DNA of 24,000 bases from Candidatus Electrothrix aestuarii (GTDB lineage: Bacteria > Desulfobacterota > Desulfobulbia > Desulfobulbales > Desulfobulbaceae): contig CP159373.1 in NCBI GenBank assembly GCA_032595685.2, positions 3,165,907 through 3,189,906 of the forward strand, written 5' to 3'. A program made the position numbers and the translations under genes. Positions 4,715 to 24,000 of this stretch are shown here, piece by piece (the stretch's first letter is position 1; every line of letters begins with the position of its first letter). The notes beneath the pieces were generated by a model that searched no databases, was not told where the DNA came from, and saw nothing but the letters and a program-made list of their open reading frames with translations.

Positions 4715-4965
4715 CGATAATGCAGTTTGTTGAGTATAAGACCCGGCCTCTATCATGCCTGTTGACAGGTTGCGCCAAGCAGGCGTCCATGATACAAAGT
4801 AGAGAATTCCTGGTAGGTTGGTGTACTTTGATGCCAAGAGACTGGGATGGAAAGTAATACTTCATAAAAGAACAATAATTTATCATTATAGAGCATTGTT
4901 TCCAATTATGCAAGGGTGAAAGCACGTCCATGGGCTTAGATATGCTTGAGCCAAGGGAAAGGTCT

Positions 4966-5592
4966 ATGCATCAGGCGATAATTTTTGATTTTGACGGCAC
5001 TATTGCTGACTCCTTTAATAGTTTTTTTGTTATCTGGAACAGGATAGCAGTTGAGAACGGCTATAGAGTTGTATCGGCAGAGGAAATTGAGGGCTTTCGG
5101 GGAAAAGAATCTCAGGATGTGGTGCGAGCTCTAAAGATTCCTTTCCTTAAGCTTCCCTTTGTTCTGCACCGTGCAAGAAAGGAATTCGGAAAAATCATAC
5201 CGGAAATTCCCCTGGTGGCGGGCATGAAAGAAACCTTGTTCGAGCTCCAGGCACAGGGGATTCAGCTCGGCCTGCTTACCTCTAATGCCTCGGAAAATGT
5301 ACAGGCCTTTTTTACTGTCCATCAACTGGATTGCTTTGATATTCTCTTTGCCTCTTCCGGGCTCTGGGGAAAGGCGAGACGCATCGAAAAAATCATTACC
5401 ATACATCAGCTTGAGAAAAAACAGGTGCTCTATGTCGGTGACGAAACCAGAGATATTGAGGCGGCACGGAAGGCCGGGGTGAGTATCGCCGCTGTGACCT
5501 GGGGATATAATAACGCAGAGGTTCTGAAGAATTTTTCACCGGACCATCTGATAAACCAGCCCCATGAACTTCTTTCGTTTATGGGGTTGTGA
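4966..5592 (+). CDS. HAD-superfamily hydrolase, subfamily IA (phosphoglycolate-phosphatase-like)
   Basis: HAD motif I IIFDFDGTIADS, motif II LLTSN and motif IV YVGDETRDIEAA. The ORF is open from 4930, with in-frame ATGs at 4930, 4942 and 4966. I prefer 4966 (MHQAIIFDFDGT) because ggaaagg precedes it and the DxD motif normally sits within about 10 residues of the N-terminus. Confidence 0.85.
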   Translation: MHQAIIFDFDGTIADSFNSFFVIWNRIAVENGYRVVSAEEIEGFRGKESQDVVRALKIPFLKLPFVLHRARKEFGKIIPEIPLVAGMKETLFELQAQGIQLGLLTSNASENVQAFFTVHQLDCFDILFASSGLWGKARRIEKIITIHQLEKKQVLYVGDETRDIEAARKAGVSIAAVTWGYNNAEVLKNFSPDHLINQPHELLSFMGL

Positions 5593-5617
5593 CAGAAAAG
5601 CCATCTTATCCATTCTA

Positions 5618-6373
5618 TTAGAGCAAGATTTCTGTAAGTACTAATCCTGTTGCGGCAAAGAGTAAGCTGACGGCCAGGAGCACGTCGCTTTTTTGCAGAC
5701 CATTTGTGTCATATAGACTATGAAATTCCCCCGAGAAACCACGTAACTCCATTGCTTGCTGGACTCGCGTCCCCCGATTCCAGCTCCGCACCAGCATCAT
5801 GCCCAACATATAACTATAGGTCCTGTAGGTATGGAGGTCGGTTTTCGGCTGAAAGCAGCGCAAGGTAGCTGCTCGCTGCAAACGAAAAAGCTCCTGCTGG
5901 ATGAGTGATATGTAGCGGTAAGAGAAAAGGAGCAGCAGGCAGAGCTTAGGAGAAAGGCGCAGTTGCTGAAGCCCGTGGCCAAGCTGGGCAGCTGTTGAGG
6001 TAGCCAGGAGGCTGATGAAAAGAAGAACAACCGCGTTGGATTTAACGGTGATCAGGAGGCCGAGAAAAAGACCTGTGCTGTTCAGAGTGATCCCAAGCAG
6101 TGAAAAGCTGTCTTCGCCGGTATAGGTCAGTGGCAGAATAAGACAGAGTAAGATATTGAAGCTGTTCACCAGGAGTAGACGGCGTAGGAGCATCTTCCAG
6201 GAAAGATGGGCTGCCAGGACGAGGATGCATGCGAGCAGAAAGCCAAGTAAACTGGTGGCCCAGCTCTGACTCAGGGCAATAATCAGACTGAGGATAGCAG
6301 TGCAGATCAGCTTCGCTCTGGGATCTGTCCGATGGAGAAATGAAGTGCCGTCACTGAATTGTTCAAAGGTCAT
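5618..6373 (-). CDS. cbiQ: ECF transporter transmembrane (T) component, CbiQ/NikQ family
   Basis: 251-aa polytopic membrane protein. It starts F..DGTSFLHR.DPR.K, as CbiQ/EcfT proteins do, has an arginine-rich C-terminal coupling region, and is the last gene of the M-L-K-Q cluster. Confidence 0.8.
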   Translation of the reverse strand: MTFEQFSDGTSFLHRTDPRAKLICTAILSLIIALSQSWATSLLGFLLACILVLAAHLSWKMLLRRLLLVNSFNILLCLILPLTYTGEDSFSLLGITLNSTGLFLGLLITVKSNAVVLLFISLLATSTAAQLGHGLQQLRLSPKLCLLLLFSYRYISLIQQELFRLQRAATLRCFQPKTDLHTYRTYSYMLGMMLVRSWNRGTRVQQAMELRGFSGEFHSLYDTNGLQKSDVLLAVSLLFAATGLVLTEILL

Positions 6374-6510
6374 ACGCTGCCAATAACGTTTTGCGGTGTG
6401 TCGCTGCTTGATGAGTTTTTTGAGAGGACTCTAGAAAAGAGTCTTGAGAGATCCCGCCCCCGAAAGGGCGGGCATGTAACTTCTCTTCCTGAACGATAAA
6501 CGAGGGGGGG

Positions 6511-7281
6511 CTATTTTTTATAGGAGTCCAGGTAAGTCCAAAGAACCGCACCCAGCTCTACTCCCTTCTCGTTTCCTTCAGGATCCTTGATGGTGTAGTC
6601 AGCTTCATTCAGTGCGGCAAATCCCCACCAGCCAGGCTGAGGGCAGGCAAAGGTGAAAACGCCGTTCTCATCAGCCTTAACTACCTGGGTGACATGGTAG
6701 TCGCTCGGTGCTTTGAATTTCTTGTCTTTATTGTACAGCTCAACCTCAACCTCAGCACCAGGAACCGGTTTTCCTTTTAGCAGAACCTGACCGGAAAAGC
6801 TATTGCCTGCATAATTACCAAAAGGACGGGTCAAGGGCACGATTTCTGTTGCTATACCAACTGGCTCGTCCCAGCCTTGGTCATCACCAAAGGCTGCGAT
6901 CAGGGTTTTGGTGTAGTGGATGATAGATACATCCTCAGCTGGCTCCCAGTAGGGAGTCGGTTCCATAACAAAGGTGTATACGCCAGGGCGTTTAATGGCC
7001 ACCTCAGTTGTCCAGGCAGCATGATCCATGACCTTGGACTCTTTGAGCGCAGGCAGCAGGTCGGTTTTCTTGTCGCCTGCCATCATGAAAAATGCCTTAG
7101 GTTTTACCAGATCCATGCCGATCATTTCAAAGGGATGGGAAAAAGAGAGGTCAAGTTCAACACTCTTCTTTTTAGGCTCCAGAATGTTCTCTGAAGGAAT
7201 AACCATTCCGAAATGGGCAAGGGCCTCACCTGTCATGCAGGCGAGAAAGAGTGCGGTTGCGGCAACAGCTTTGATCTTCAT
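6511..7281 (-). CDS. Periplasmic DUF4198 / COG5266 'CbiK'-type component of Ni/Co uptake systems (NikK-like)
   Basis: 256 aa. It has a Sec signal peptide (MKIKAVAATALFLACMTGEALA|HFGM), with the mature N-terminus HFGMVIPS typical of DUF4198 proteins. The body is beta-rich, and the gene lies between the M/L-like and Q genes. Confidence 0.7.
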   Translation of the reverse strand: MKIKAVAATALFLACMTGEALAHFGMVIPSENILEPKKKSVELDLSFSHPFEMIGMDLVKPKAFFMMAGDKKTDLLPALKESKVMDHAAWTTEVAIKRPGVYTFVMEPTPYWEPAEDVSIIHYTKTLIAAFGDDQGWDEPVGIATEIVPLTRPFGNYAGNSFSGQVLLKGKPVPGAEVEVELYNKDKKFKAPSDYHVTQVVKADENGVFTFACPQPGWWGFAALNEADYTIKDPEGNEKGVELGAVLWTYLDSYKK

Positions 7282-7362
7282 CGGTTGTACTCCTTTTTTT
7301 ACATCAGATATTATATTTGAGGATCAGAAAATACGATCCAGTTTTTTCCGACAGTGAATTTC

Positions 7363-7977
7363 TTATTCGGCTGTCGAGTTCTTCTTCTTTTTTTTGTTTG
7401 ATTGTATCCAGGCAAAGAGAGCGGCCAAGCCGATAATACAGCCGATCCCGCCGACAATATCACGTGGGCGTACTTTTTTTTCCCGTGCTTCAGCTAATTG
7501 TTGTTTTATGGGAGTCAGTTCCCTTGTTAATTCCTGCCGCACTATTTCCCGGACAGTTTTTACATCCAGTGTTCCTTGCTTTGCTTTGCTTTCTTCCACA
7601 GGAAAATTTGTGGAGGCATCCGGCAGAAGGTATTCATCTGCTGTGAGGAGCCATTCTCCACGGTGCCCGTCCCCTGAGTTTGCTATGATCCGTAGATCAG
7701 CTTTTTGTTCTATAGCCTTTTGGGGTGGCGGAAATTGGAATTTTCCTTCTCTATCTGTCTCTATTCTGAGAAGAAGCGTGTCTGATTGAGCATCCTGAAC
7801 CTGTATGGTTATATTCTTTGCCTTGCGTCCCCCACTGAAGAAAGCCTCACCATAGATCTGGTTACCTTCTGCCCAGGAAAATATGTTTAGTTTATGTGCC
7901 CGGGCTGGTGATGCTGTCAGCAGACTGAGCAGGCAGATGAGAACGACAAATATTCCATGAAGAGAAGGTCTCTTCAT
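7363..7977 (-). CDS. NikL-like auxiliary membrane protein: N-terminal signal/anchor, transthyretin/CarboxypepD_reg-like beta domain, C-terminal TM helix
   Basis: 204 aa. It has the signal LLSLLTASPARA|HK, the block ITIQVQDAQSDTLLLRIETDREGKFQF typical of the carboxypeptidase-regulatory-like fold, and a C-terminal helix IVGGIGCIIGLAALFAWI followed by a lysine run. Its start overlaps the stop of the upstream M gene (ATGA, 7974-7977), which suggests translational coupling. Confidence 0.6.
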   Translation of the reverse strand: MKRPSLHGIFVVLICLLSLLTASPARAHKLNIFSWAEGNQIYGEAFFSGGRKAKNITIQVQDAQSDTLLLRIETDREGKFQFPPPQKAIEQKADLRIIANSGDGHRGEWLLTADEYLLPDASTNFPVEESKAKQGTLDVKTVREIVRQELTRELTPIKQQLAEAREKKVRPRDIVGGIGCIIGLAALFAWIQSNKKKKKNSTAE

Positions 7978-8576
7978 GCGTACTTGAGGTGGAGGATTTC
8001 AGGCTGTACCTTGGCAAGGAAGCTGACCGTAAACATGGTAATACATCCCTCAATGATCATGATCGGGAGGTTTGCAGCAACAATAAGTTGGGCCGCTGTC
8101 ATGAAGCCTGTGTCTGTCAGGGCAAGAGCGCAGGAGGTCAGGAGTGAGGCCAAGAGGATAGCGAAAAAGCCTGCAAAAAAAGCAGCTAGAGAACGTGTTT
8201 TCGGGTTATCCATCCAAGGACGGGTGAGGTAGTAACAACAAAGGGCTGGGGCACCCATTGTTACTGTATTTACGCCAAGAACGGCAAATCCCCCGAATTG
8301 GAAAAACAGGGCTTGCAGAAAGAGGGCAACCAGGATTGCCGGAAAAGCTGCCCACCCGAGCATTACCCCAAGGAGGCCGATCAGCATCAAATGCACTGAA
8401 CCGGGACCGAGCGGTACATGAACAAGTCCAGCAACAAAAAAGGCTGAAGAAAGAAGAGCTACAGGCATGATCTCATCAATATCAATTTTTTTCAACCCAA
8501 TAACGGTACCTATTGCAGCTATAACGCCACCACTTATTAAAACTGGTGCGGAAAGAATGCCTTCTGAAATGTGCAT
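7974..8576 (-). CDS. cbiM: ECF-type Ni/Co transporter substrate-capture component, CbiM/NikM family
   Basis: The ORF is open from 8705, but the family signature MHISEGIL begins at the internal ATG at 8576. In CbiM/NikM the N-terminal Met-His takes part in metal binding, so the true start must be this Met. That gives a 200-aa polytopic membrane protein. Confidence 0.85.
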   Translation of the reverse strand: MHISEGILSAPVLISGGVIAAIGTVIGLKKIDIDEIMPVALLSSAFFVAGLVHVPLGPGSVHLMLIGLLGVMLGWAAFPAILVALFLQALFFQFGGFAVLGVNTVTMGAPALCCYYLTRPWMDNPKTRSLAAFFAGFFAILLASLLTSCALALTDTGFMTAAQLIVAANLPIMIIEGCITMFTVSFLAKVQPEILHLKYA

Positions 8577-8889
8577 GGGAATCACTGGTAATATTTTTTT
8601 AATGTTTGTAACACTAAAATCCTGTTTACTATAAAGCAGAATGCTTGTCAAGCTGTAGGTAAAAAATGCAAAAGAAGGATCTTTTTCGTAGGGAAAATGG
8701 GGCACTAAATATTTTTTGAAGAATTTATATTAAAAAATACGGTAATCAAGCCGGTTACAAAGGAAGGGAAGGAGAGATGGAATGCAATGCTGTGTAGATA
8801 ATATTCTGTTTTTTTGCCGTTATTTTGTGTTGCGCTCCTGTGCAATTGGGTAGGGAAAGATAGGGTTAACAGATCATGCAAAAAAAATA

Positions 8890-9198: not shown

Positions 9199-9561
9199 GA
9201 ACCACAGTTGATGATGAAGGGCAGCGGTTTATAGCTCTTGAGGTATTCCGTTGTCCCTTTATCGTTCATTTAAGGTGGGAGCTCTTACGTCCCCTGTTTC
9301 CTGCTTTAAAATTTTTCCCTAATATTTTCTCACCTTCTTCATCTTCCCTCTCCATTTTTCTTTCTTCAGTAAACTTTTCAGATAGTTTTTTACACCTCGT
9401 CCGTCTCACCTCCTCGCTGTGGTGCCCGAGATAGGGGAGGCTTGTCTTCGTAGCGATCATACGTGTTACCTCTCCCTCCTCTACACTCTCTTCTGAGAGG
9501 TTTACGGAAGAGTTATTTTTCTCTTTATGCGTTGTTGCTTTCCTGGAAATGATACAAAAAA

Positions 9562-9593
9562 GGGGGCACAGGGATTTTCATCCCTATGCCCCC
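9562..9593. terminator. Bidirectional rho-independent terminator between the convergent ferredoxin and Cys-rich genes
   Basis: Hairpin gggggcaCagggat-tttc-atccctAtgccccc with one C/A mismatch. A6 lies upstream and TTTGGGCTTTTT downstream on the + strand, so the minus strand reads a hairpin followed by TTTTTTG. It lies 34 nt after the stop of the minus-strand gene. Confidence 0.75.
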
Positions 9594-9626
9594 TTTGGGC
9601 TTTTTGTTATGGCAGCAGCAATTTAA

Positions 9627-10688
9627 TTAGTGCTGAAAACGCAGACCGATACCAAAACGTCCGTACTGATCAATATCACTCATCTCGTCAACAGCACTTC
9701 GGGCTTCCAGGAATACGGAGATATTGAAAGCATTGGGATCTCCGTACACGCGAGCACCTATATTGGCGAGAACGTCAAGATCGGAATCATCGGAATCAAG
9801 ATCGCTGTCATTATCAGTGATCCAACCACCGAGACCCAGGCCGACAAAGCCATCAAAGGCTCCAGACCAGTTATACTGAGCAAAAACATCAATAAGTAAT
9901 GCATCATCGCCGTCTGAACCGTCCAATTTAGGAGCAGCTCCTACCATTGCCAGGAAGGAGAGATTCTCAAGCGAGGTGCCTGCAAAGGGAGAATATTGAA
10001 CACCCAAGCGGGCAAAGAGATAGTCTGCTGGATCAGAAAGACGCAGGTAACCAAGGTCGCCAACAAAGCGCAAAGGGCCTATTGCCAGATCTGCTTCTGT
10101 GTCTTCTATCTCGTCGGTGTCTGTATCATCGACAACGTCAGTCGGCAAACACTCAGCAGGAACTCCCTGGCATTCAGCCGGGCAACCTTCCTGATCCTTG
10201 GTATCGTCTACGCAGGATTCAGGGCAATCTGTGGGAAATTTATCACAGATATTACAGCCCAACTCATCACATACAGGAGGACAATTCTCACCTTCAGGGT
10301 TTTCAATACATTCTACAGAACAATCATCACAGCTGTAACATTTTATGTCACGACAGATATCCGGACAACCTTCGCCGTAGGGATTCATTTTACATTCTGG
10401 AGTACAGTCCTCGCAGGATTGACAACTGATATCCTTGCAGATGTCTGGGCATCCTGGGCTATAAGGATTCATTTTGCACTCGTCTGAGCAGTCGTCGCAG
10501 GATGCCTGGGATGCCTGACATGCCGGATCTTTACATACAGATGGACAGCCCTTGCCATAAGGATTCTCCAGACATTCATCTGAGCAGTCATCGCAGGTAT
10601 AGGCTTTGCCACCGGCAAAAGCAACACCTGTCGACAACAGGACGAAAACAGCACCCTGTGCCAACACTTTCAGTCTCATTGTTCTCAC
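9627..10688 (-). CDS. Exported cysteine-rich repeat protein fused to a predicted 8-strand outer-membrane beta-barrel; no family recognised
   Basis: 353 aa with four parts. (1) Sec-type signal peptide MRTMRLKVLAQGAVFVLLSTGVAFA|GG. (2) Residues 32-180 hold 30 Cys, as four tandem C-x2-C-x3-C-x8-C-x3-C-x4-C units plus a degenerate fifth. (3) Acidic linker TDVVDDTDTDEIEDTEAD. (4) Residues about 201-353 show eight amphipathic beta-strand-like segments with Asp-rich loops, ending GRFGIGLRFQH. The RBS aaggagag lies upstream of the ATG. Confidence 0.85.
   Translation of the reverse strand: MRTMRLKVLAQGAVFVLLSTGVAFAGGKAYTCDDCSDECLENPYGKGCPSVCKDPACQASQASCDDCSDECKMNPYSPGCPDICKDISCQSCEDCTPECKMNPYGEGCPDICRDIKCYSCDDCSVECIENPEGENCPPVCDELGCNICDKFPTDCPESCVDDTKDQEGCPAECQGVPAECLPTDVVDDTDTDEIEDTEADLAIGPLRFVGDLGYLRLSDPADYLFARLGVQYSPFAGTSLENLSFLAMVGAAPKLDGSDGDDALLIDVFAQYNWSGAFDGFVGLGLGGWITDNDSDLDSDDSDLDVLANIGARVYGDPNAFNISVFLEARSAVDEMSDIDQYGRFGIGLRFQH
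10149..10595 (-). repeat. In-frame tandem coding repeats encoding the Cys6 modules
   Basis: The repeat units start at Cys32, Cys64, Cys92 and Cys120, a period of 32 then 28 then 28 residues, followed by a degenerate unit Cys148-Cys180. The repeat is also visible in DNA: tcatctgagcagtcatcgcagg (10576-10597) matches tcgtctgagcagtcgtcgcagg (10481-10502). Confidence 0.9.
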
Positions 10689-10781
10689 TCTCCTTGTTCT
10701 GTGAAGTTTATCTCATTGCCCGTGGTTGCGGACGAACTGCATTTTCCCTACAAAAGAGGGTAAAATTTTTTTTACTTATAA

Positions 10782-10810: not shown

Positions 10811-10989
10811 CAGAAAAAAACAACAAGCAGCTATAGCGATGTTTTTCGGCCCTGAAAAAGCTTTGCAGGTGAAAAATACAAATAGCAGTTGCTTTTGACT
10901 TCCCAAGGGCTACAGTAAAATGAACAGTATGTTACTGCGTGGTCAACAAATGGGTTGTTTATTGTTTTTCTTTAACAGGTACGGTGGAA

Positions 10990-11604
10990 ATGAAAAAGAT
11001 ACATCTCCTCACCGGGCTACTTTGGTTGTTTATATGTCTGGGGCACAGCTTTTCTTTCGAGTTGATCAGGCAGGATGTTGTTCAATTCCCCTTAGCCCTC
11101 CTTCTCTCTATTCTTTTACCAGTGAGCTTCTGGCTGCTTGCCAAGGGTGAGAAACAGCGATATCTTGCCCTGCTTTTTGTCGGGATATTTATAATCAACA
11201 CTTCCTTTCTGTTCGTTATCATGCGCGGCAGTTTTGCCACCAAGCAGCAAATGGCTGAGCAGCTCAAGGCGGGAATACAGCCAGATCTGGCAGAATATCT
11301 CATTACCGCTGTGAGTGCTCATAAACGACAGATTGCAGCCCGGCTTATTTATCAGCTGCATGGGGTGGCCTTACCCTTTAAAAACGATGCCGGTGGCTAT
11401 ACCTTATATGAACCCGACAAGGCCGATAAGGAAAAATTTCAAAAGAATTTTTTTGCCCAGAATGAGCTGAAACTGAGACAAGGAGGCTTTGCAGCGTCTT
11501 TTGCCACAGCAACACTTTTGATGTTGATTCATGTCGGACTGTTTATTGCCTTACTGGTTTTTTTAGTGCTTTATGATCAGGGAAAGCTGGAAAGAGATGA
11601 GTGA
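10990..11604 (+). CDS. Hypothetical integral membrane protein
   Basis: The ORF is open from a GTG at 10939, but the ATG at 10990 is preceded by ggtgga. The N-terminal region is hydrophobic, with roughly three helices by eye (LLTGLLWLFICLG, FPLALLLSILLPVSFWLLA, YLALLFVGIFIINTSFLFVIM). A soluble segment of about 90 aa follows, then a C-terminal helix LLMLIHVGLFIALLVFLVL. I recognise no family. It is transcribed divergently from the Cys-rich gene. Confidence 0.6.
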   Translation: MKKIHLLTGLLWLFICLGHSFSFELIRQDVVQFPLALLLSILLPVSFWLLAKGEKQRYLALLFVGIFIINTSFLFVIMRGSFATKQQMAEQLKAGIQPDLAEYLITAVSAHKRQIAARLIYQLHGVALPFKNDAGGYTLYEPDKADKEKFQKNFFAQNELKLRQGGFAASFATATLLMLIHVGLFIALLVFLVLYDQGKLERDE

Positions 11605-11678: not shown

Positions 11679-13025
11679 TTATACGCCGTATCGCTTCAGC
11701 TTATTCAACAGGGTTTTTCTGGTAATCTGGAGACGACGGGCCGCCTCGCTGCGATTTCCGTTGGTTTCATCAAGAGTTTTGAGGATAAGCTGGCGCTCAG
11801 CGTCTCGTAGGGTGGACGGCTGTTCTTCGTCCTTTTTGGGGTTCATGCCAGCCCAATTCTGAACAGCCATAGGCAGGCTCTCAATATCGAGATATTCTCC
11901 CCGCATCAGAATAACCCCGCGTTCAATAGCATTTTCCAGTTCCCGAACATTGCCGGGCCAGGGGTAGCGATTGAGTATATCCATACAATCAGGAGTAATG
12001 CCCTGCACTTCCCGTTTATTTCTTTTAGCAAAACTGCGCAGAAAATAATCAGCAAGTAAGGGGATATCTCCATCACGGTCTGCCAAGGACGGCATATCCA
12101 AGGCCACAACATTTAAACGATAATAAAGATCTTCCCGGAAATTTCCTGCTTTGACTTCAGCCTCCAGGTCGCGGTTCGTGGCCGTAACAATGCGGACATC
12201 CACCTTTATAATTTCCTGACCACCAACCCGTTGCAACTCATGCTCCTGAATAACCCGGAGTAGTTTTGCCTGCATAGCAGGGGTGGTTTCGCCTATCTCA
12301 TCAAGAAAGAGTGTGCCTTCCTGGGCCTGGACAAAACAGCCTTCGCGACGGCGATCTGCTCCTGTAAAGGCTCCTTTTTCATGGCCAAACAGCTCAGATT
12401 CCAGCAGGGTTTCTGACAAAGCAGCGCAGTTTACCTTAACAAAGGGGCCCTTTCTCCGGTGACTTTTATAATGCAATGCCGAGGCAACCAACTCTTTTCC
12501 TGTACCGGAATCTCCGGTAATCAGTACAGTAGCTTCAGTCGGAGCGACTTGAACAATCATCTCCCAGAGAGTCTGCATTGGCGTAGAGGAGCCAATAATC
12601 TTGCCATCCTCGCCAAAGGGTTTTTCCGTGAGCTCTGCCTTGTCCGGTTGCTGCCGATGTCCCAGAGCGGCTTCCAGGGTTTGGCGAAGTCGCTCAAAAT
12701 CTATGGGTTTGGTCAAATAGTCATGGGCACCTAATTTGATTGCTTCAACGGCTGAATCTATTGAGGAGTAGGCTGTCATCATGACAACCGGAATCGATGG
12801 ATTAATGGCGTGTATCTGCCGTAAGGCCTGTAGGCCGTCTATTGGCTCCATACAGACATCCAGGAGAATGACATCAAAAGGACCTTGTCGGACAGCATTA
12901 ACTGCTGTTTCTCCGTCCTCTGCTTCCTGACATGACCAGCCCCATTCCGTCAGCATGGAGTAGAGCATGTACCTGTGAACCTGCTCGTCGTCTACAATTA
13001 AAATTTTGACCTTCTTTTTATCCAT
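11679..13025 (-). CDS. Sigma-54-dependent response regulator (NtrC/AtoC-type enhancer-binding protein)
   Basis: 448 aa with three domains. The REC domain has ILIVDDE and the phospho-acceptor context ILLDVCMEPIDG. The AAA+ domain has Walker A GDSGTGKE, the sigma-54 contact loop ESELFGHEKGAFTGA and Walker B LFLDEIGE. The C-terminal Fis-type HTH reads GNRSEAARRLQITRKTLLNKLKRYG. Confidence 0.95.
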   Translation of the reverse strand: MDKKKVKILIVDDEQVHRYMLYSMLTEWGWSCQEAEDGETAVNAVRQGPFDVILLDVCMEPIDGLQALRQIHAINPSIPVVMMTAYSSIDSAVEAIKLGAHDYLTKPIDFERLRQTLEAALGHRQQPDKAELTEKPFGEDGKIIGSSTPMQTLWEMIVQVAPTEATVLITGDSGTGKELVASALHYKSHRRKGPFVKVNCAALSETLLESELFGHEKGAFTGADRRREGCFVQAQEGTLFLDEIGETTPAMQAKLLRVIQEHELQRVGGQEIIKVDVRIVTATNRDLEAEVKAGNFREDLYYRLNVVALDMPSLADRDGDIPLLADYFLRSFAKRNKREVQGITPDCMDILNRYPWPGNVRELENAIERGVILMRGEYLDIESLPMAVQNWAGMNPKKDEEQPSTLRDAERQLILKTLDETNGNRSEAARRLQITRKTLLNKLKRYGV

Positions 13026-15434: not shown

Positions 15435-16247
15435 TTATATATCATGAATTTCTTCCATGTCTTCCCCGAGATAGGCCTTAATCACCTCTGGATTATTGCG
15501 GACCTCGTTCGGCGTACCTTCCGCGATTTTCTTGCCGTAGTCCATGACAAAAATATGGTCGGATAGGCTCATCACCAGTTTCATATCGTGCTCAATGAGC
15601 AGGATAGAGATGCCGTCATCTCGGATTTCGGTGATAAGTTCATCAAGTTCTACGGTCTCCTGGGGGTTCATTCCGGCTGCGGGCTCATCAAGGAGGAGCA
15701 GGGACGGGTCGGTTGCCAGTGCTCTGGCTATCTCCAGTCTGCGCTGGGCGCCATAGGGGAGGTTTTTTGCGAATTCATCAGCCAGTTCAGCCAAATCGAT
15801 TTTCTCCAGCAGGCTGTAGGAGCGGGCAATGACCTCTTTTTCTTCCTTCTGTGTGCCTTTGTCGCGAAAGATCGCACCTAATACCCTGGCCTTGGTGCGG
15901 CAATGGCAACCAATCATGACGTTTTCCAGAACGCTCATGTCCGGGAAGAGGCGGATGTTCTGAAAGGTCCGCGCCAGTCCCTGTTCCGTCACCTGATTAG
16001 GCTTTAAGCCGTTGAGTCGTTTGCGGCGGCGGCCCGGTGGTGTCAGAAAAAGATTGCCAGAGGTTGGTTTGTAAATCCCGGTCAGGCAGTTGAAAAAGGT
16101 GGTCTTGCCTGCGCCGTTTGGGCCAATCAGGGCGGCGATTTCCCCTTGCCGAACCCGGATATTGAGTTTGTCCAAAGCCCTGATGCCACCGAAGTCCATC
16201 GTGAGATCCTGCACTTCGAGGATAGGATTGTTACTTTGCTCGGTCAT
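15435..16247 (-). CDS. livG: Branched-chain amino acid ABC transporter ATP-binding protein, LivG family
   Basis: Walker A GPNGAGKTT, signature LPYGAQRRLEIARAL and Walker B LLLLDEPAAGM. The LivG-type insertion and the C-terminal EVIKAYLG are present. The ORF is open from 16334, but MTEQSNNPILEVQDLTMDFGG from the ATG at 16247 matches the usual N-terminus (270 aa). Confidence 0.88.
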   Translation of the reverse strand: MTEQSNNPILEVQDLTMDFGGIRALDKLNIRVRQGEIAALIGPNGAGKTTFFNCLTGIYKPTSGNLFLTPPGRRRKRLNGLKPNQVTEQGLARTFQNIRLFPDMSVLENVMIGCHCRTKARVLGAIFRDKGTQKEEKEVIARSYSLLEKIDLAELADEFAKNLPYGAQRRLEIARALATDPSLLLLDEPAAGMNPQETVELDELITEIRDDGISILLIEHDMKLVMSLSDHIFVMDYGKKIAEGTPNEVRNNPEVIKAYLGEDMEEIHDI

Positions 16248-16329
16248 GTTTAGTGAATCCCTGCGAGAGAATTGCGATAAAGACCCGTTGTCAGGCCTGC
16301 TGCTTTTGCACGAAATAGCTGCCAAGTTT

Positions 16330-16513
16330 GGCATGCTTCATATACCCCGAAAAGTAGTTGACACTTTCCGCAAGAACTGTGCCAAGCTATCGGGACAGGA
16401 CAAGCCTAATAGTATCGCAACAGTTTAACTTTACAGGTGTTGTAATAGGTTTCTTGTCTTGGATGAGGCACGACTCATCCAGAAAGTGTCAACCGGCATA
16501 TATGAAGCATGCC
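16330..16513. repeat. Imperfect inverted repeat enclosing about 113 bp, between the cassette and livG
   Basis: The left arm ggcatgcttcatata (16330-16344) ... gttgacactttc (16357-16368) is the exact reverse complement of the right arm gaaagtgtcaac (16482-16493) ... tatatgaagcatgcc (16499-16513). A 6-7-nt indel lies between the two blocks. The interior carries another 7-bp hairpin, ggatgag-gcacga-ctcatcc (16461-16480). Confidence 0.8.
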
Positions 16514-16592
16514 CCAAGTTTATACATATCATACTTGTGTCCCTCGACTATTTGCTCTTATAGCTTTCGCTTTCTTAACAACAGAATTTTCT

Positions 16593-17021
16593 TTATCCTT
16601 GTTTATTATGATCTCTAGTACCAGCAATTCTCATAAAACGCCCTGTTTCACTAATCTCGTGGGCTGCAAATTCTATAAGAGTTCTCCTGCTCTCTTTACT
16701 ACGGGGTGATAAGTCAAGCTGTTTTAAAAGATCAAGTAATTCTGGAGATTCTACTTTACGATCTTCAAAATACGCAACAAGAGCCTCTTTATCCATTTCA
16801 TAAAGAGATTCAACAGGCTTATCAATACGTTTTGAAGCATCGGCAATAAGGATCTCAATTAATTCATTTTTTGTGGCCTTTTTTTTAAATTCAAGTTGTT
16901 GATCTATTAATATATTTTGAAGGCGCTGGATAGTGAATTCTTTGCTATGCTCAAGTCCCGCAATTGCCCCCTTAGTACCCAACCATTGAACTAACATTCT
17001 TGAATCGAATTTTTCTTCCAT
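16593..17021 (-). CDS. Small hypothetical protein with two helix-extension-helix (SAP/Rho-N-like) motifs; candidate DNA-binding partner of the ParA-like ATPase
   Basis: The ATG at 17021-17019 overlaps the ParA stop as TAATG. The track's GTG at 17030 is less likely. The protein is 142 aa: MEEKFDSRMLVQWLG... Two segments resemble HeH/SAP motifs by eye: TIQRLQNILIDQQLEFKKKATKNELIEILI and PELLDLLKQLDLSPRSKESRRTLIEFAA. The DNA is very AT-rich. Confidence 0.6.
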   Translation of the reverse strand: MEEKFDSRMLVQWLGTKGAIAGLEHSKEFTIQRLQNILIDQQLEFKKKATKNELIEILIADASKRIDKPVESLYEMDKEALVAYFEDRKVESPELLDLLKQLDLSPRSKESRRTLIEFAAHEISETGRFMRIAGTRDHNKQG

Positions 17022-20428: not shown

Positions 20429-23400
20429 TTATTGCCCCAGCAAGCCGTTCAGGAGATTAGGAACCACCTTATCAACCTGTTCTCTCAGGATGCTTCTGGT
20501 TGCCTGGCCTGCTGCCTGCTTGAGTAACTCCGATGAAGCATCCATCATAGCTTCCCGACTATAGGCTGGTTTTTCTTTCGTCCCCCTTATAGGAACTTTC
20601 AGCGTGGTTCCCTTAAGCAATTCGTATCCCTTTTTACCCAAGAGCCTTTGGGTTACCGGGACCTCAACAATATAGTTCAGGCTTCCGTCTATTCCTGCTG
20701 AACCGCTGATGACCATTTCGGAATCAGCGATTGTTACCTTAATCGGTGTACAGCTGACCTGTCCCTGCACGCTCTCGCAGGTCAGCTCCTTATTTTTCAG
20801 CGTGAGGCTTCTGTCCACATAGCCAGCCATATCCAGGATGCTATTCAGCGCGCCTTTGGCTTCTAAGGCCACGGCTTTCAGATCGAGGTAGACCTTGAAA
20901 TCAATCTTTTCCATCCCTTTTTCATCCAGGGGCAGGGAAAAGCGATCCAGCCGAACAGTGATAATACCCTCAGCGTTTGCCAGGGCGCCAAAAATAGGGT
21001 GGATACCTTTGAGGACTTTCTCGGTTAAGGCCTCTTCAAGCTGCACGTCAGTCAGTACCTGTTCGCCCTCAGCCATTGTCAGAAGCGGTGGCTGCTGGGT
21101 ATAATCAATGCGGGGCGAAAACTGCAACCAGCCGCCATTCAAAGTTCCTTTGATAACACCTGCCATCACCCCTTCCTTCATATCGGTGTCCAGAGTGAGT
21201 TTGCTAATATCTATGCCCGATTGGGAAAAGGAGTCGGCATAGATTTTTGTGGCAAAACGGAGGTCAATCTTGGCATTTTTCTTTTCTTCGGCAGTAAGGG
21301 GATAATAGAGAGAAAATTTTTCTTTCTTTTTTCCGGTAGCTTCAATGCCCAAGGGGTACATACCGTTCAGGATAGCAACTAAGGAGGCTAAATCCGGGGT
21401 AGCATATCCGTTTAAGGTAAAATGCGGTTTCTTACCGCTGAGCTGAAATTCACCGTCTGCCTGGAGACTCAATGGTGCGGATTCAATATCAAAGGTGGTA
21501 AACTGAACATCACCGGCAGTCAGATCTCCATGCAGGCGACTCCTGAAAATAAGTTTTTGCCGTTCTATCAGGAGGTCATCTTTGGCCTTTTGTCCCCGTA
21601 CCTTTTCTCCGGCTTTCCTGTAGGTAAAATCATCAATATCCAACTTCACCGTTCCGGCATTCCCCTTATTGCTTGTTCCGGCGATCTTGACATCTTCTTT
21701 TCTCTCTGCCAGATCAAGAGAGAATATCGCATCTCCACCAAACTTTTGCTCGGACCCCATCGCTCCCAGCTGCTGCAATAAGGTGGTCAGTTTTTCAAGA
21801 TTTGATCTGCCGCTGACCTGCAGGGTCTTGATTGCCGGGGCAGGTTTTTTTTGCCAATCATCAAGGAAGATTTTTTCTATTTTGATGTCTGAGAAGCCTG
21901 AGTTTAGCGATAAATTGCGCAAAACCAAACGATGATTCTTGGTGTCAATGAGGTTGTATCCCCCTCCCTGGGCAAAGAAAGCATCCTTGCTGGCTGCTTT
22001 CTCCAGAGGACGTACGGCCTCTTCTACATTGGGGGTGGGTTCCGGCTTGGTTGTAAAAAGTGAGAGATCAGGATCCTGAAGGACTTTTCCCTGGCGGTAG
22101 AGAATAAACTGCTTCACCCGGCTATCCAGGGTACTCACAACCAAGCGGTCTTTTTCTGTATAGCCGGTGGCCTGTAGCTTCATGTCACCGGCAATACTGG
22201 TTTCCTGTTCTAAGAGATCAAAACGATGGAGCAGTTCTGTTACCCGGGCCAGAGGTCCATCTGTGTTCAGCTGATAATTGGCCATGATCTGTCCCTGATC
22301 CCGATACAGTCCAGTGAAAGATCCAGAGAATTTGCCCGCCCAAGAGGACAGGTCAAAGGTGAAATCCGCAGCCTCTGCCTTTGCCGTAGGAAAATGCCCT
22401 GGTGTGACCAAGGTACCGTTAAAAATGAACGGATGCACCGGCAGCACCTCTCTCTTTTGCAGAGAGAGACGGTAATCGTTAATGGCAATCATGGTACGTA
22501 TCGTATAACGATCTTCGTTATCCTTTGTCGTTTCCAGATTCAGGTTCAAGTTGCCGCCTGCGTCCCAATCAAAGCGAATAATCCGACCAAGTTCTTTTAC
22601 TGCCTTATCAAGGTTTGCTGATCCCTTGAGGGTGAAATGTTGCAGATTTCCCTGCCCCTCTATATCGAGAAAGTCAGCCTTAAGGGCTATTTTCTCGACC
22701 TCTGGTTCATTACCTGTCATGCTCCCGTTCAAGCGCAGGCTGAAGGGGCTCTTCCAGACAAAGGACTGCTTATTTTGCCGACCTGCCAAGTCCTCAACGA
22801 TGGCATCCGCCTTTACCTGCATGACTTTGTCCTGTTCTTCCAGGTCAAAAGTCAATGAGGCCTTGCCATTCTCCAGCCTGAGATTCTCCTGGGCCTTGAG
22901 AAGGCCGGGCAACTGCGCGAGTAACACCGGTAGATCAAATTTCGCTGTACCGTTTGCCTTTAAGCCCTGTTTGCCATAGCTGGACTGAAGATCCACAGAA
23001 CCAAGATCAGAGAGCATTTTTAGCTCCGGCAATTGCCATTCTTTTTTCTCATCACGTTGCAGATGGAGCTCAAAGGCCAGCTGCTCCAGCTGCGGATGAT
23101 CATCTTGCAAAAAACCTCCTGTCAGGTCAAGTTCATGCAGGGTGATCGGGCCACTAAGGACCAAATTGCCTCCCTCGGTATTTTTCACGGTCAAATTAGC
23201 TGCGAGGATAGCCTTGCCCTGGGGAACATTGCTCCCGGCTGGCGCCAAAGCGAGAAAGGGGGAAAGCTGGACATCTGATAAGGTGATCTTCATATCAGCA
23301 GTCATGAGATCCAACAGATTTCCTTTAAGCGAGGGGAGGTGGGCCGTCCCTTGTACATTTACCTGACCAGCAGTTTGACCAGTAGCCTGCTCAGCAGCAC

Positions 23401-24000
23401 TTGCCAGAGCAAGATTCAGGTCCAGGGTGTCAGAGGCCAGGGTGAGTTCCAGATTCCCTTGCTGTAATAAGGGCTGGGGCTGCTGCTCTCCTTGCTGTAC
23501 TTTGATAATGGCTTGGTTAAGGAGGAGCTTTGCGTTCATTTGATGCCAGAACCAAGTTTCGGGCTCTTTGCTTCCGTCCTCGTTTTTCACTTGGTCAGCA
23601 TTGCCGCCGTCCTTTACTGAGGAGCCTTTCGTATCAGTTTGCGGAGCAACAGGATCGACTTCAGCGCCAGGTGTGGGCTGGGTGGTGATAAGCACCACCG
23701 GATCATCCACCGTAATGGTTCCGAGGTTTTTCGGAGCCATCAGTAAGGAAAAGAGCCCCTGGGTTCCAGTCAACCGGGCAGCGTCGATCTTGTAGGACTG
23801 GTCATGATAAGAGATCTCTGAGCATTGTAGTCCCTTACTCCAGCCTATCTCGCAATCACCAAGCGCGAGTTTTCCTGGAGAGCTGTTGTTTACCTTGTCA
23901 ACAACGCTGTCCTTCACCCAGTCCGAGGAAAGAATGAGGGGAATCACGGCCATGGTGATGCCGAAAAGTACAAGTGTAAAGAGCAGCGTTGCTCCCACAA
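20429..24000 (-). CDS. Large AsmA-family-like envelope protein; the N-terminus probably lies just beyond the right edge
   Basis: At least 1189 aa. An N-terminal anchor helix LLFTLVLFGITMAVIPLIL is followed by a long, beta-rich, low-cysteine body. The C-terminal segment LKVPIRGTKEKPAY resembles the AsmA_2 end motif. The first in-window codon is a GTG at 23998, and the frame is still open at the edge. Confidence 0.55.
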   Translation of the reverse strand, partial: VGATLLFTLVLFGITMAVIPLILSSDWVKDSVVDKVNNSSPGKLALGDCEIGWSKGLQCSEISYHDQSYKIDAARLTGTQGLFSLLMAPKNLGTITVDDPVVLITTQPTPGAEVDPVAPQTDTKGSSVKDGGNADQVKNEDGSKEPETWFWHQMNAKLLLNQAIIKVQQGEQQPQPLLQQGNLELTLASDTLDLNLALASAAEQATGQTAGQVNVQGTAHLPSLKGNLLDLMTADMKITLSDVQLSPFLALAPAGSNVPQGKAILAANLTVKNTEGGNLVLSGPITLHELDLTGGFLQDDHPQLEQLAFELHLQRDEKKEWQLPELKMLSDLGSVDLQSSYGKQGLKANGTAKFDLPVLLAQLPGLLKAQENLRLENGKASLTFDLEEQDKVMQVKADAIVEDLAGRQNKQSFVWKSPFSLRLNGSMTGNEPEVEKIALKADFLDIEGQGNLQHFTLKGSANLDKAVKELGRIIRFDWDAGGNLNLNLETTKDNEDRYTIRTMIAINDYRLSLQKREVLPVHPFIFNGTLVTPGHFPTAKAEAADFTFDLSSWAGKFSGSFTGLYRDQGQIMANYQLNTDGPLARVTELLHRFDLLEQETSIAGDMKLQATGYTEKDRLVVSTLDSRVKQFILYRQGKVLQDPDLSLFTTKPEPTPNVEEAVRPLEKAASKDAFFAQGGGYNLIDTKNHRLVLRNLSLNSGFSDIKIEKIFLDDWQKKPAPAIKTLQVSGRSNLEKLTTLLQQLGAMGSEQKFGGDAIFSLDLAERKEDVKIAGTSNKGNAGTVKLDIDDFTYRKAGEKVRGQKAKDDLLIERQKLIFRSRLHGDLTAGDVQFTTFDIESAPLSLQADGEFQLSGKKPHFTLNGYATPDLASLVAILNGMYPLGIEATGKKKEKFSLYYPLTAEEKKNAKIDLRFATKIYADSFSQSGIDISKLTLDTDMKEGVMAGVIKGTLNGGWLQFSPRIDYTQQPPLLTMAEGEQVLTDVQLEEALTEKVLKGIHPIFGALANAEGIITVRLDRFSLPLDEKGMEKIDFKVYLDLKAVALEAKGALNSILDMAGYVDRSLTLKNKELTCESVQGQVSCTPIKVTIADSEMVISGSAGIDGSLNYIVEVPVTQRLLGKKGYELLKGTTLKVPIRGTKEKPAYSREAMMDASSELLKQAAGQATRSILREQVDKVVPNLLNGLLGQ

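Follow-up and report, generated by a model that had tools for sequence, protein, structure and literature searches.

In a 24,000-nucleotide stretch of Candidatus (Ca.) Electrothrix aestuarii DNA (assembly GCA_032595685.2, contig CP159373.1, positions 3,165,907 to 3,189,906; hereafter the window), we characterized a minus-strand gene whose product joins an exported, cysteine-rich repeat domain to a predicted eight-stranded outer-membrane beta-barrel. The product is 100% identical to XCN71512.1, a hypothetical protein of the same organism. It belongs to no described family, and neither sequence searches nor a fold search of the PDB detected a relative of its cysteine domain. Judged from our sequence searches, the family is restricted to cable bacteria, where it occurs in both genera. 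What is new is the cysteine-repeat domain on a barrel-anchored envelope protein, the eight-stranded barrel fold itself being already known. We tentatively favor a reading in which this domain is a disulfide-stapled periplasmic rod and the protein a structural tether of the outer-membrane envelope, and we rank a metal-thiolate binder second.

Cysteine modules and the predicted barrel

The protein begins with a Sec-type signal peptide that has a typical n-h-c region and, by inspection, an A-x-A cleavage site (AFA/GG). This was borne out by inspection and by a regular-expression search, in agreement with an earlier note on this DNA that had described a Sec signal lacking a twin-arginine motif. 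No RR occurs in residues 1-25, which led us to reject a Tat substrate, and none was visible in the signal peptides of the aligned orthologues. A bacterial lipoprotein was likewise rejected, as no lipobox was found in the first 35 residues. The signal peptide is conserved among orthologues and has low values of the predicted local distance difference test (pLDDT) in the AlphaFold2 model.

Residue numbers counted from an upstream GTG exceed by 3 those counted from the ATG that is used in Table 1. In the GTG numbering, 30 cysteines fall within residues 32-180. The spacing C-x2-C-x3-C-x8-C-x3-C-x4-C occurs exactly four times, at residues 32-57, 64-89, 92-117 and 120-145, and a fifth, degenerate module with the spacing C-x6-C-x3-C-x9-C-x3-C-x6-C follows at residues 148-180. 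The gaps between successive cysteines are thus 2, 3, 8, 3 and 4 residues in each of the first four modules and 6, 3, 9, 3 and 6 in the fifth, and the modules are separated, in order, by 6, 2, 2 and 2 residues. When the cysteine region was shuffled with its composition preserved, at least one match to the pattern arose in 813 of 200,000 shuffles (0.4%), against the four tandem matches observed. The regular expression and the shuffles therefore uphold the four exact modules, the degenerate fifth and the total of 30 cysteines that had been reported earlier. Between modules, 7-13 of the 20 non-cysteine positions are common. The core of each module is a twin Cx3C, in which C2-x3-C3 is followed by an eight-residue NP(Y/E)..G loop and by C4-P-x2-C5, with C1 and C6 as an outer pair. 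Module 5 retains this core as CPxxC...CPxxC.

The cysteine domain comprises ~150 residues, 19% of them Cys, with 35 Asp or Glu against 10 Lys or Arg, no His and a net charge of about -25. It contains neither CC nor CxC motifs, and it has five Tyr and one Phe. CxxCH is absent from the whole protein, in which the sole His is the C-terminal residue; the lack of heme motifs noted before was thus confirmed, and a c-type multihaem cytochrome was rejected for this reason. At the junctions between modules, the cysteines C6-x2-C1-x2-C2-x3-C3 form the string CxxCxxCxxxC, which this protein contains twice and each of 24 orthologues two or more times. A Cys-Pro pair stands eight residues later, and the fourth cysteine is never directly followed by Pro. 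The statement of the earlier note that the spacing is not ferredoxin-like consequently held within the modules and failed across their junctions, where CxxCxxCxxxC is present, although without the Pro and without any Fer4 match.

An AlphaFold2 model of the full-length protein, built from a 24-sequence alignment, reached a mean pLDDT of 80. The cysteine domain was modelled as a chain of short helices, three per module (block pLDDT ~71-91), and short helices were predicted over both Cx3C motifs of the modules. Modelled alone and without metal, the domain was again helical (pLDDT 82.5), and this model gave no Foldseek match in the PDB. Sequence searches with the domain returned no Pfam match, with no metallothionein model and, even at E=10, no Fer4 model, no NCBIfam match and no credible PDB sequence or profile match. 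The sole PDB profile matches, to poxvirus A16/OPG143 (E ~0.02), were rejected as compositional bias, which accounted for 12 of 17.6 bits. The earlier view that the protein fits no described family is thus shared by the Pfam, NCBIfam and PDB sequence, fold and profile searches.

The linker that follows the cysteine domain is acidic, as had been noticed before, with 10 Asp or Glu in 24 residues. Orthologue linkers are 18-87 amino acids (aa) long and rich in Pro, Asp and Glu, and they often contain a sixth cysteine module. Beyond the linker, AlphaFold2 predicted eight strands in residues 203-349, with a short helix between strands 7 and 8 (block pLDDT mostly 84-97). Foldseek searches of the PDB matched this part to PagL, the OprF N-domain, the OmpA transmembrane domain, NspA and OmpX (probability 1.00, template modeling (TM) score by target 0.56-0.62), and to OmpW with probability 1.00 and a lower TM score of 0.41-0.51. 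Larger barrels and the autotransporter beta-domains of BrkA and NalP were far weaker, the autotransporters scoring a TM of ~0.25. In strands 2-8, a dyad pattern was evident, with a mean Kyte-Doolittle hydropathy of +1.5 to +3.5 on one face and -2.7 to 0.0 on the other, while strand 1 was ambiguous. AlphaFold2 and Foldseek therefore agree on the OmpX-size, eight-strand barrel that the earlier note had read from the C-terminal half, and seven of the eight strands alternate between hydrophobic and polar residues. The tethering of the cysteine domain to the membrane, also proposed in that note, would follow from this predicted barrel.

Among 95 family sequences, the final residue is Phe in 61 and Tyr in 12, and Phe occupies position -3 in 74. 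This is the usual pattern of a BAM-type beta-signal, and the present protein closes with a beta-signal-like motif. UniProt automatically names it 'Outer membrane protein beta-barrel domain-containing protein'. Since searches of Pfam and NCBIfam gave no barrel model, even at E=10, we assign the C-terminal ~150 residues at the level of fold, as a predicted closed eight-stranded barrel of the OmpA/OmpX/PagL kind, and not as a member of a family. With the small eight-stranded barrels (OmpA, OmpX, NspA, PagL, the OprF N-domain and OmpW), it has in common a closed barrel of ~150 residues, a lipid-facing alternation and a family beta-signal, at 11-18% identity in the Foldseek alignments. Its loops are very short and Asp-rich, unlike those of the barrels compared, and its soluble domain lies N-terminal to the barrel, the reverse of the order in OmpA and OprF. 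This barrel subfamily, moreover, was seen only in cable bacteria and has swappable N-terminal modules.

The swapping was apparent from paralogues in which the same barrel is joined to a different N-terminal module of ~150 aa with the signature I/L-G-R-H-P-F-(H/Y)-x-P-P-L ... G-N-L-A-L (including P0038, P0040-P0043, P0054, P0066 and P0074). Some barrel paralogues carry PGPERIV tandem repeats or a beta-rich insert, and P0030, P0032, P0037 and P0039 join the IGRHPF-type module, cysteine repeats and the barrel in one protein. At three Electronema loci (L018-L020, ~4850-5770), a barrel paralogue is found in tandem, directly upstream of the orthologue. None of these proteins gave a Pfam match. Because different modules are paired with it in this way, the barrel seems to serve the cable-bacteria lineage as a general-purpose anchor for periplasmic modules.

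In solved eight-stranded outer-membrane barrels (OmpA, OmpX, PagL, NspA and OmpW), both termini are periplasmic. Since all eight strands of the present barrel are C-terminal to the cysteine domain, this domain is, by analogy, most likely periplasmic and hung by the linker from the inner face of the outer membrane. Given periplasmic termini, the three short Asp-rich loops on one side of the barrel (SDGDD, DNDSDLDSDDS and VDEMSDIDQYG) would lie on the outer face.

Distribution and conservation in cable bacteria

A word-indexed search of 5.8 billion proteins identified 83 relatives. The named full-length relatives came only from Ca. Electrothrix, Ca. Electronema and 'Desulfobulbus sp. TB/F3', and the rest were metagenome proteins; we take the labels 'Desulfobulbus sp. 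TB/F3' to be earlier ones for cable-bacteria genomes. A scan of 185,579 species, each represented by a single genome, was made with two very specific peptide patterns that distant relatives could escape, and it found 20 loci. Seventeen of these were labelled Ca. Electrothrix or Ca. Electronema, and the other three were in metagenome-assembled genomes named 'Desulfobulbaceae bacterium', with 56-71% identity to the query, inside the cable-bacteria range. For the cysteine domain alone, the word-indexed search collected five candidates and returned three fragments, and it was replaced by a HMMER profile search run exhaustively over 1.84 billion cluster representatives. This retrieved the family itself and one further match (P0097), which we rejected as spurious, being a cysteine repeat of the eukaryotic DSL/EGF-like type.

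Conservation was analyzed in 24 full-length orthologues with 57-84% identity. The earlier note had proposed asking whether the cysteines are conserved among homologues and whether the module number varies, and both were found. Every cysteine column is invariant or at least 90% conserved, and the only losses stem from a clean, in-register deletion of the whole of module 1 in one orthologue (P0010). By a regular expression with relaxed spacing, the number of modules ranges from 3 to 6. Cysteine counts are even in 23 of the 24 orthologues (30, 34, 36 or 44), the exception having 49 with an extra Cys in a Lys-rich linker, and cysteines are gained and lost in whole six-cysteine modules or in four-cysteine units. 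The Asp residues adjoining cysteines, in C-x-D-C and CPDIC.D, are invariant.

Compared with Electrothrix orthologues, the ratio of nonsynonymous to synonymous substitution rates (dN/dS) was 0.04-0.07 for the cysteine domain and 0.02-0.09 for the barrel. These low values indicate strong purifying selection on both halves and a real minus-strand reading frame. Two plus-strand open reading frames (ORFs) inside the gene (9947-10429 and 9996-10487, 160-163 aa) were rejected as shadow frames of this conserved gene.

The linker differs most in the giant-filament clade. In Ca. Electrothrix gigas (L022) and the similar P0011 and P0014, it measures 76-87 aa, compared with a range of 18-62 aa among the remaining orthologues for which it was determined, and it is Pro/Glu-rich, with PEEDPI-type repeats and a truncated four-cysteine unit. 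P0012 was grouped with P0011, P0014 and L022 in this observation.

Possible roles of the cysteine domain

To the reading of the protein as a disulfide-stapled periplasmic rod that tethers the outer-membrane envelope we give slightly less than even credence, and it ranks first among those considered. With both barrel termini periplasmic, the rod would hang into the compartment of the Ni-S conductive fibres. Each module would be a twin-Cx3C helix-loop-helix (C2x3C3 ... C4x3C5) with a flanking outer cysteine pair, which in the oxidized form could close three nested disulfides, C3-C4, C2-C5 and C1-C6. Modules stapled in this manner would make a stiff rod that resists protease and detergent, and the protein would have a structural role, tying the outer membrane to a periplasmic partner or spacing the two. 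The thiol ladder could also be reduced or take a thiophilic metal; a redox-dependent state is conceivable.

The even cysteine counts, the gain and loss of cysteines in sets of six or four and the confident metal-free model argue for a stapled rod, and the variable linker rich in Pro, Asp and Glu is as expected of a spacer. The fibre skeleton of cable bacteria is S-rich and resistant to sodium dodecyl sulfate (SDS) and ethylenediaminetetraacetic acid (EDTA), and abundant protein disulfides have been tentatively proposed as the cause (PMC8238962). A functional analogue exists in the chlamydial OmcA and OmcB (with MOMP), cysteine-rich envelope proteins that stiffen the envelope by disulfide cross-linking (PMC6752827). 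They are not homologues, having no sequence or fold relation and another cysteine pattern. The present protein, for which cross-linking is hypothetical, has a regular repeat of 26 residues joined to a barrel anchor of its own.

Twin-Cx3C and CHCH hairpins, such as those of the small Tim and Cox17-type proteins, form nested inter-helix disulfides, and in their reduced form they can bind Zn or Cu. The likeness lies in two Cx3C motifs on consecutive short helices with a short loop between them, as judged from the counted spacing and the predicted helices of our protein. Those proteins are eukaryotic, reside in the mitochondrial intermembrane space and consist of a single hairpin, whereas the present protein is bacterial and Sec-exported, with five or six tandem hairpins, an extra outer cysteine pair and an eight-residue loop. 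No sequence match to twin-Cx3C or CHCH proteins was found. If the role is purely structural, the family would represent a new cysteine-repeat fold and a new family of barrel-anchored periplasmic modules, and such modules may explain the unusual, SDS-resistant shared filament envelope.

Several points weigh against the stapled tether. The proposed disulfide pairing derives from cysteine spacing and predicted secondary structure, and periplasmic thiols may be kept reduced in cells of the sulfidic zone. The four-cysteine unit of the E. gigas clade, C-x2-C-x3-C-x4-C, fits the nested pairing poorly, and the extreme acidity of the domain, together with the invariant Asp beside Cys, would also suit cation binding. 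The present protein ends in GxGLRFQ-H (...GLRFQH), with His in the place of an aromatic residue. Paper texts and supplements searched by accession and locus tag held no expression or localization data.

A metal-thiolate binder is possible, if doubtful. In this case, a reduced rod rich in Cys and Asp would hold Ni2+, Cu+, Fe2+ or Zn2+, either buffering or chaperoning nickel in the periplasm to supply fibre assembly or working as a sponge that detoxifies metal and sulfide. The high cysteine content, the negative charge and the invariant Asp are consistent with such a role, as are the CxxCxxCxxxC strings kept at the junctions in all orthologues. An importer cluster of the order fd-nikM-L-K-Q adjoins the gene in every Electrothrix locus examined. 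More than 95% of the cellular nickel of cable bacteria is located in the periplasmic fibres (PMC13534509), and Cu and S are described in the cable-bacteria literature as enriched at the junction cartwheels. However, the nik synteny is missing in Electronema, and even in Electrothrix the gene has its own terminator and is followed by a convergent ferredoxin gene before nikM, hence it forms no operon with nik. A sequence-based search for nickel-binding proteins in EMBO Reports gave 16 candidates, of which only one, a NikA-like protein, was predicted to be periplasmic, and the accession of the RB orthologue was not found in the EMBO Reports supplements.

The domain also lacks His and Met clusters and the CC or CxC motifs typical of metallothioneins, and a confident AlphaFold2 fold without metal is unusual for metallothionein-like proteins. 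Bacterial and eukaryotic metallothioneins do resemble it in high cysteine content and in the absence of His from the domain, but the present protein differs from them in being exported and membrane-anchored, in its strict long-period repeat and in its five Tyr. A metallothionein proper was rejected on the missing CC and CxC, the five Tyr and one Phe, the confident metal-free model and the lack of a Pfam match. Should Ni or Cu be bound, the protein would bear on how the very large periplasmic nickel pool is handled.

We consider it unlikely that the protein is a component or anchor of the conduction apparatus. The cysteines would then cap or anchor the Ni-dithiolene ribbons or the Cu/S-rich cartwheel, or relay electrons from sulfide to the fibres; S-S or S-Ni links would fix the fibres under the outer-membrane ridges, and the relay would proceed by thiol/disulfide chemistry. 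The occurrence of the family only in cable bacteria, in both genera, and its predicted site on the periplasmic side of the outer membrane, along which the fibres lie, are in line with this role, as is the linker length, which reaches its maximum in the clade of the giant-filament E. gigas. Spectroscopic papers model terminal 'cysteine links' on Ni(ett) oligomers; in the Ni-dithiolene ribbon models these are S-S links to cysteine, and much of the fibre S is ascribed to protein Cys and Met. The fibre proteins are not yet identified in the literature. The case is nonetheless circumstantial, and lineage-specific genes are numerous in any clade. The skeleton preparations made with SDS and EDTA strip membranes, so that an integral outer-membrane protein need not be retained in them.

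A link to the Ni-S fibre system is attractive but unproven, the evidence being circumstantial. For more than a decade, the proteins responsible for building, anchoring or feeding the centimetre-long Ni-S wires have escaped identification, and this gene offers a testable candidate. Its candidacy rests on the restriction to cable bacteria, the strong purifying selection, the predicted periplasmic-face site and a cysteine content far above that of ordinary envelope proteins, arranged as a regular ladder. A role in conduction, if true, would explain why a domain of 30-36 cysteines without relatives is conserved in both genera of cable bacteria. The searchable literature contains no mention of the protein, of its accessions or of a cysteine-rich outer-membrane protein of cable bacteria.

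Display of the cysteine rod on the cell surface is improbable. Under this alternative, the rod would be the passenger of an autotransporter-like protein and would serve outside the cell as an adhesin, a surface-layer anchor or a redox center. The order passenger-linker-barrel is that of a type V autotransporter, weaker Foldseek matches to the beta-domains of BrkA and NalP were obtained, and EDTA-sensitive redox centers have been reported on the surface of cable bacteria (PMC13381530). Against these stand the closed eight-strand monomer with a polar, filled interior, the TM scores of 0.56-0.62 for small barrels against ~0.25 for autotransporters, and the absence of an autotransporter Pfam match; a type V autotransporter as such was rejected on the monomeric barrel, this TM score and the Pfam result. 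An eight-strand barrel has no pore for a passenger, and we assign surface display a low probability.

Most improbable of all is an exported ferredoxin-like protein with [4Fe-4S] clusters bound at the junction strings as a periplasmic electron wire, since these strings, although kept in 24/24 orthologues with Cys-Pro eight residues on, have no Pro right after the fourth Cys, Pfam gives no match to a Fer4-family model even at E=10, the model consists of short helices and not of the beta-alpha-beta ferredoxin fold, and the signal is of the Sec type without a twin-arginine, whereas cofactor-loaded Fe-S proteins are exported by Tat. The resemblance to 2x[4Fe-4S] ferredoxins is confined to CxxCxxCxxxC across module junctions, without the trailing Pro and in a Sec-exported protein, and a 4Fe-4S ferredoxin was rejected because CxxCxxCxxxCP and a Fer4 match are lacking and the model is helical.

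Gene structure and the neighboring nickel importer

The ORF at 9627..10688 on the minus strand was confirmed, with 353 codons if read from the GTG at 10688, the start adopted in the earlier note. The ribosome-binding site lies 1 nt from this GTG and 10 nt from the ATG at 10679, and the NCBI annotation of XCN71512.1 is also 350 aa long. The ATG is thus probably the true start, giving a protein of 350 aa, and the GTG was abandoned. Because a terminator-like hairpin is located shortly past the stop codon, the gene is probably transcribed alone, as a monocistronic unit. The coordinates of the gene, its parts and its neighbors are summarized in Table 1.

Table 1. Features of the cysteine-repeat gene and adjacent genes in the window (residues numbered from the ATG)
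Feature	Coordinates	Strand	Evidence or remark
Cysteine-repeat outer-membrane protein gene (predicted), 350 codons + stop	9627..10679	-	ORF list, 100% identical match, dN/dS
Ribosome-binding site AAGGAG	10690..10695	-	Read directly from sequence
Sec-type signal peptide, residues 1-22, MRLKVLAQGAVFVLLSTGVAFA	10614..10679	-	Inspection and regular expression
Cys module 1, residues 29-54, CDDCSDECLENPYGKGCPSVCKDPAC	10518..10595	-	Regular expression; Cys columns invariant or at least 90% conserved
Cys module 2, residues 61-86, CDDCSDECKMNPYSPGCPDICKDISC	10422..10499	-	Regular expression, orthologue alignment
Cys module 3, residues 89-114, CEDCTPECKMNPYGEGCPDICRDIKC	10338..10415	-	Most conserved module; CPDIC.D invariant
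Cys module 4, residues 117-142, CDDCSVECIENPEGENCPPVCDELGC	10254..10331	-	Regular expression, orthologue alignment
Degenerate module 5, residues 145-177, C-x6-C-P-x2-C-x9-C-P-x2-C-x6-C	10149..10247	-	Cys spacing; all six Cys invariant in 24 orthologues
Acidic disordered linker, residues 178-199	10083..10148	-	pLDDT <50 at residues 182-199; linker comparison
Predicted C-terminal 8-stranded outer-membrane beta-barrel, residues 200-350	9630..10082	-	AlphaFold2, Foldseek, dyad hydrophobicity
Intrinsic-terminator-like hairpin, 17-bp stem, 9 GC pairs, T-run	9559..9596	-	31 nt past stop
2x[4Fe-4S] ferredoxin gene, 61 aa	9013-9198	+	Convergent with the cysteine-repeat gene, divergent from nikM
nikM	7974-8705	-	Pfam CbiM
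nikL-like, 204 aa	7363-7977	-	No Pfam match in window; orthologue in L001 matches PF27549 HI_1622_C
nikK	6511-7281	-	Pfam DUF4198
nikQ	5618-6373	-	Pfam CbiQ

Downstream of the cysteine-repeat gene and on the same strand, nikM, the nikL-like gene, nikK and nikQ form a cluster for an ECF-type nickel importer (5618-8705, minus strand). No gene for the NikO ATPase is adjacent to this cluster, and an Rfam scan of the window found no riboswitch or other RNA, including upstream of the nik genes. The nikMLKQ locus of cable bacteria and its nik naming have been described in PMC11247825, where the legend of Fig. 2C lists nifJ, pgp, fd and 'hyp.' as neighbors; this 'hyp.' gene is probably the cysteine-repeat gene.

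The ferredoxin gene keeps its position in all Electrothrix loci examined. Wherever an Electrothrix-type locus continues beyond the cysteine-repeat gene, as it does in YB6, the ferredoxin and nik genes adjoin this gene. The E. gigas locus has only fd, nikL and nikK beside the gene, and in Electronema the nik synteny is absent and the neighbors are unrelated. Given the separate terminator and the interposed convergent ferredoxin gene, we regard the arrangement as genus-level synteny and not as an operon, and as a functional hint for the cysteine-repeat gene it is weak. In Electrothrix sp. GW3-4 (L001, ~15443-16697), a transposase pair (HTH_32 and DDE_3) lies between nikQ and a HAD phosphatase gene; this pair is absent from the window.

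On the other side, a divergent gene (10939-11604, plus strand) encodes a membrane protein of ~205-221 aa with no Pfam match and 52-64% identity among Electrothrix. It was rejected as a conserved neighbor, because the proteins encoded at this position in Electrothrix and in Electronema have 18-23% identity and are unrelated. A search for a sigma-54 promoter consensus in front of the cysteine-repeat gene was negative. A gene for a sigma-54-dependent response regulator (REC-AAA-HTH_8; 11679-13025, minus strand) is situated ~1 kb upstream on the same strand, and the divergent membrane-protein gene separates the two. Near the end of the window, an ORF of more than 1189 aa (20429-23998, minus strand) that runs off the window end showed no Pfam match at 1e-3; it has a hydrophobic N-terminal anchor and a repetitive, beta-rich-looking sequence, and our impression is that it may encode an AsmA/TamB-like envelope protein.

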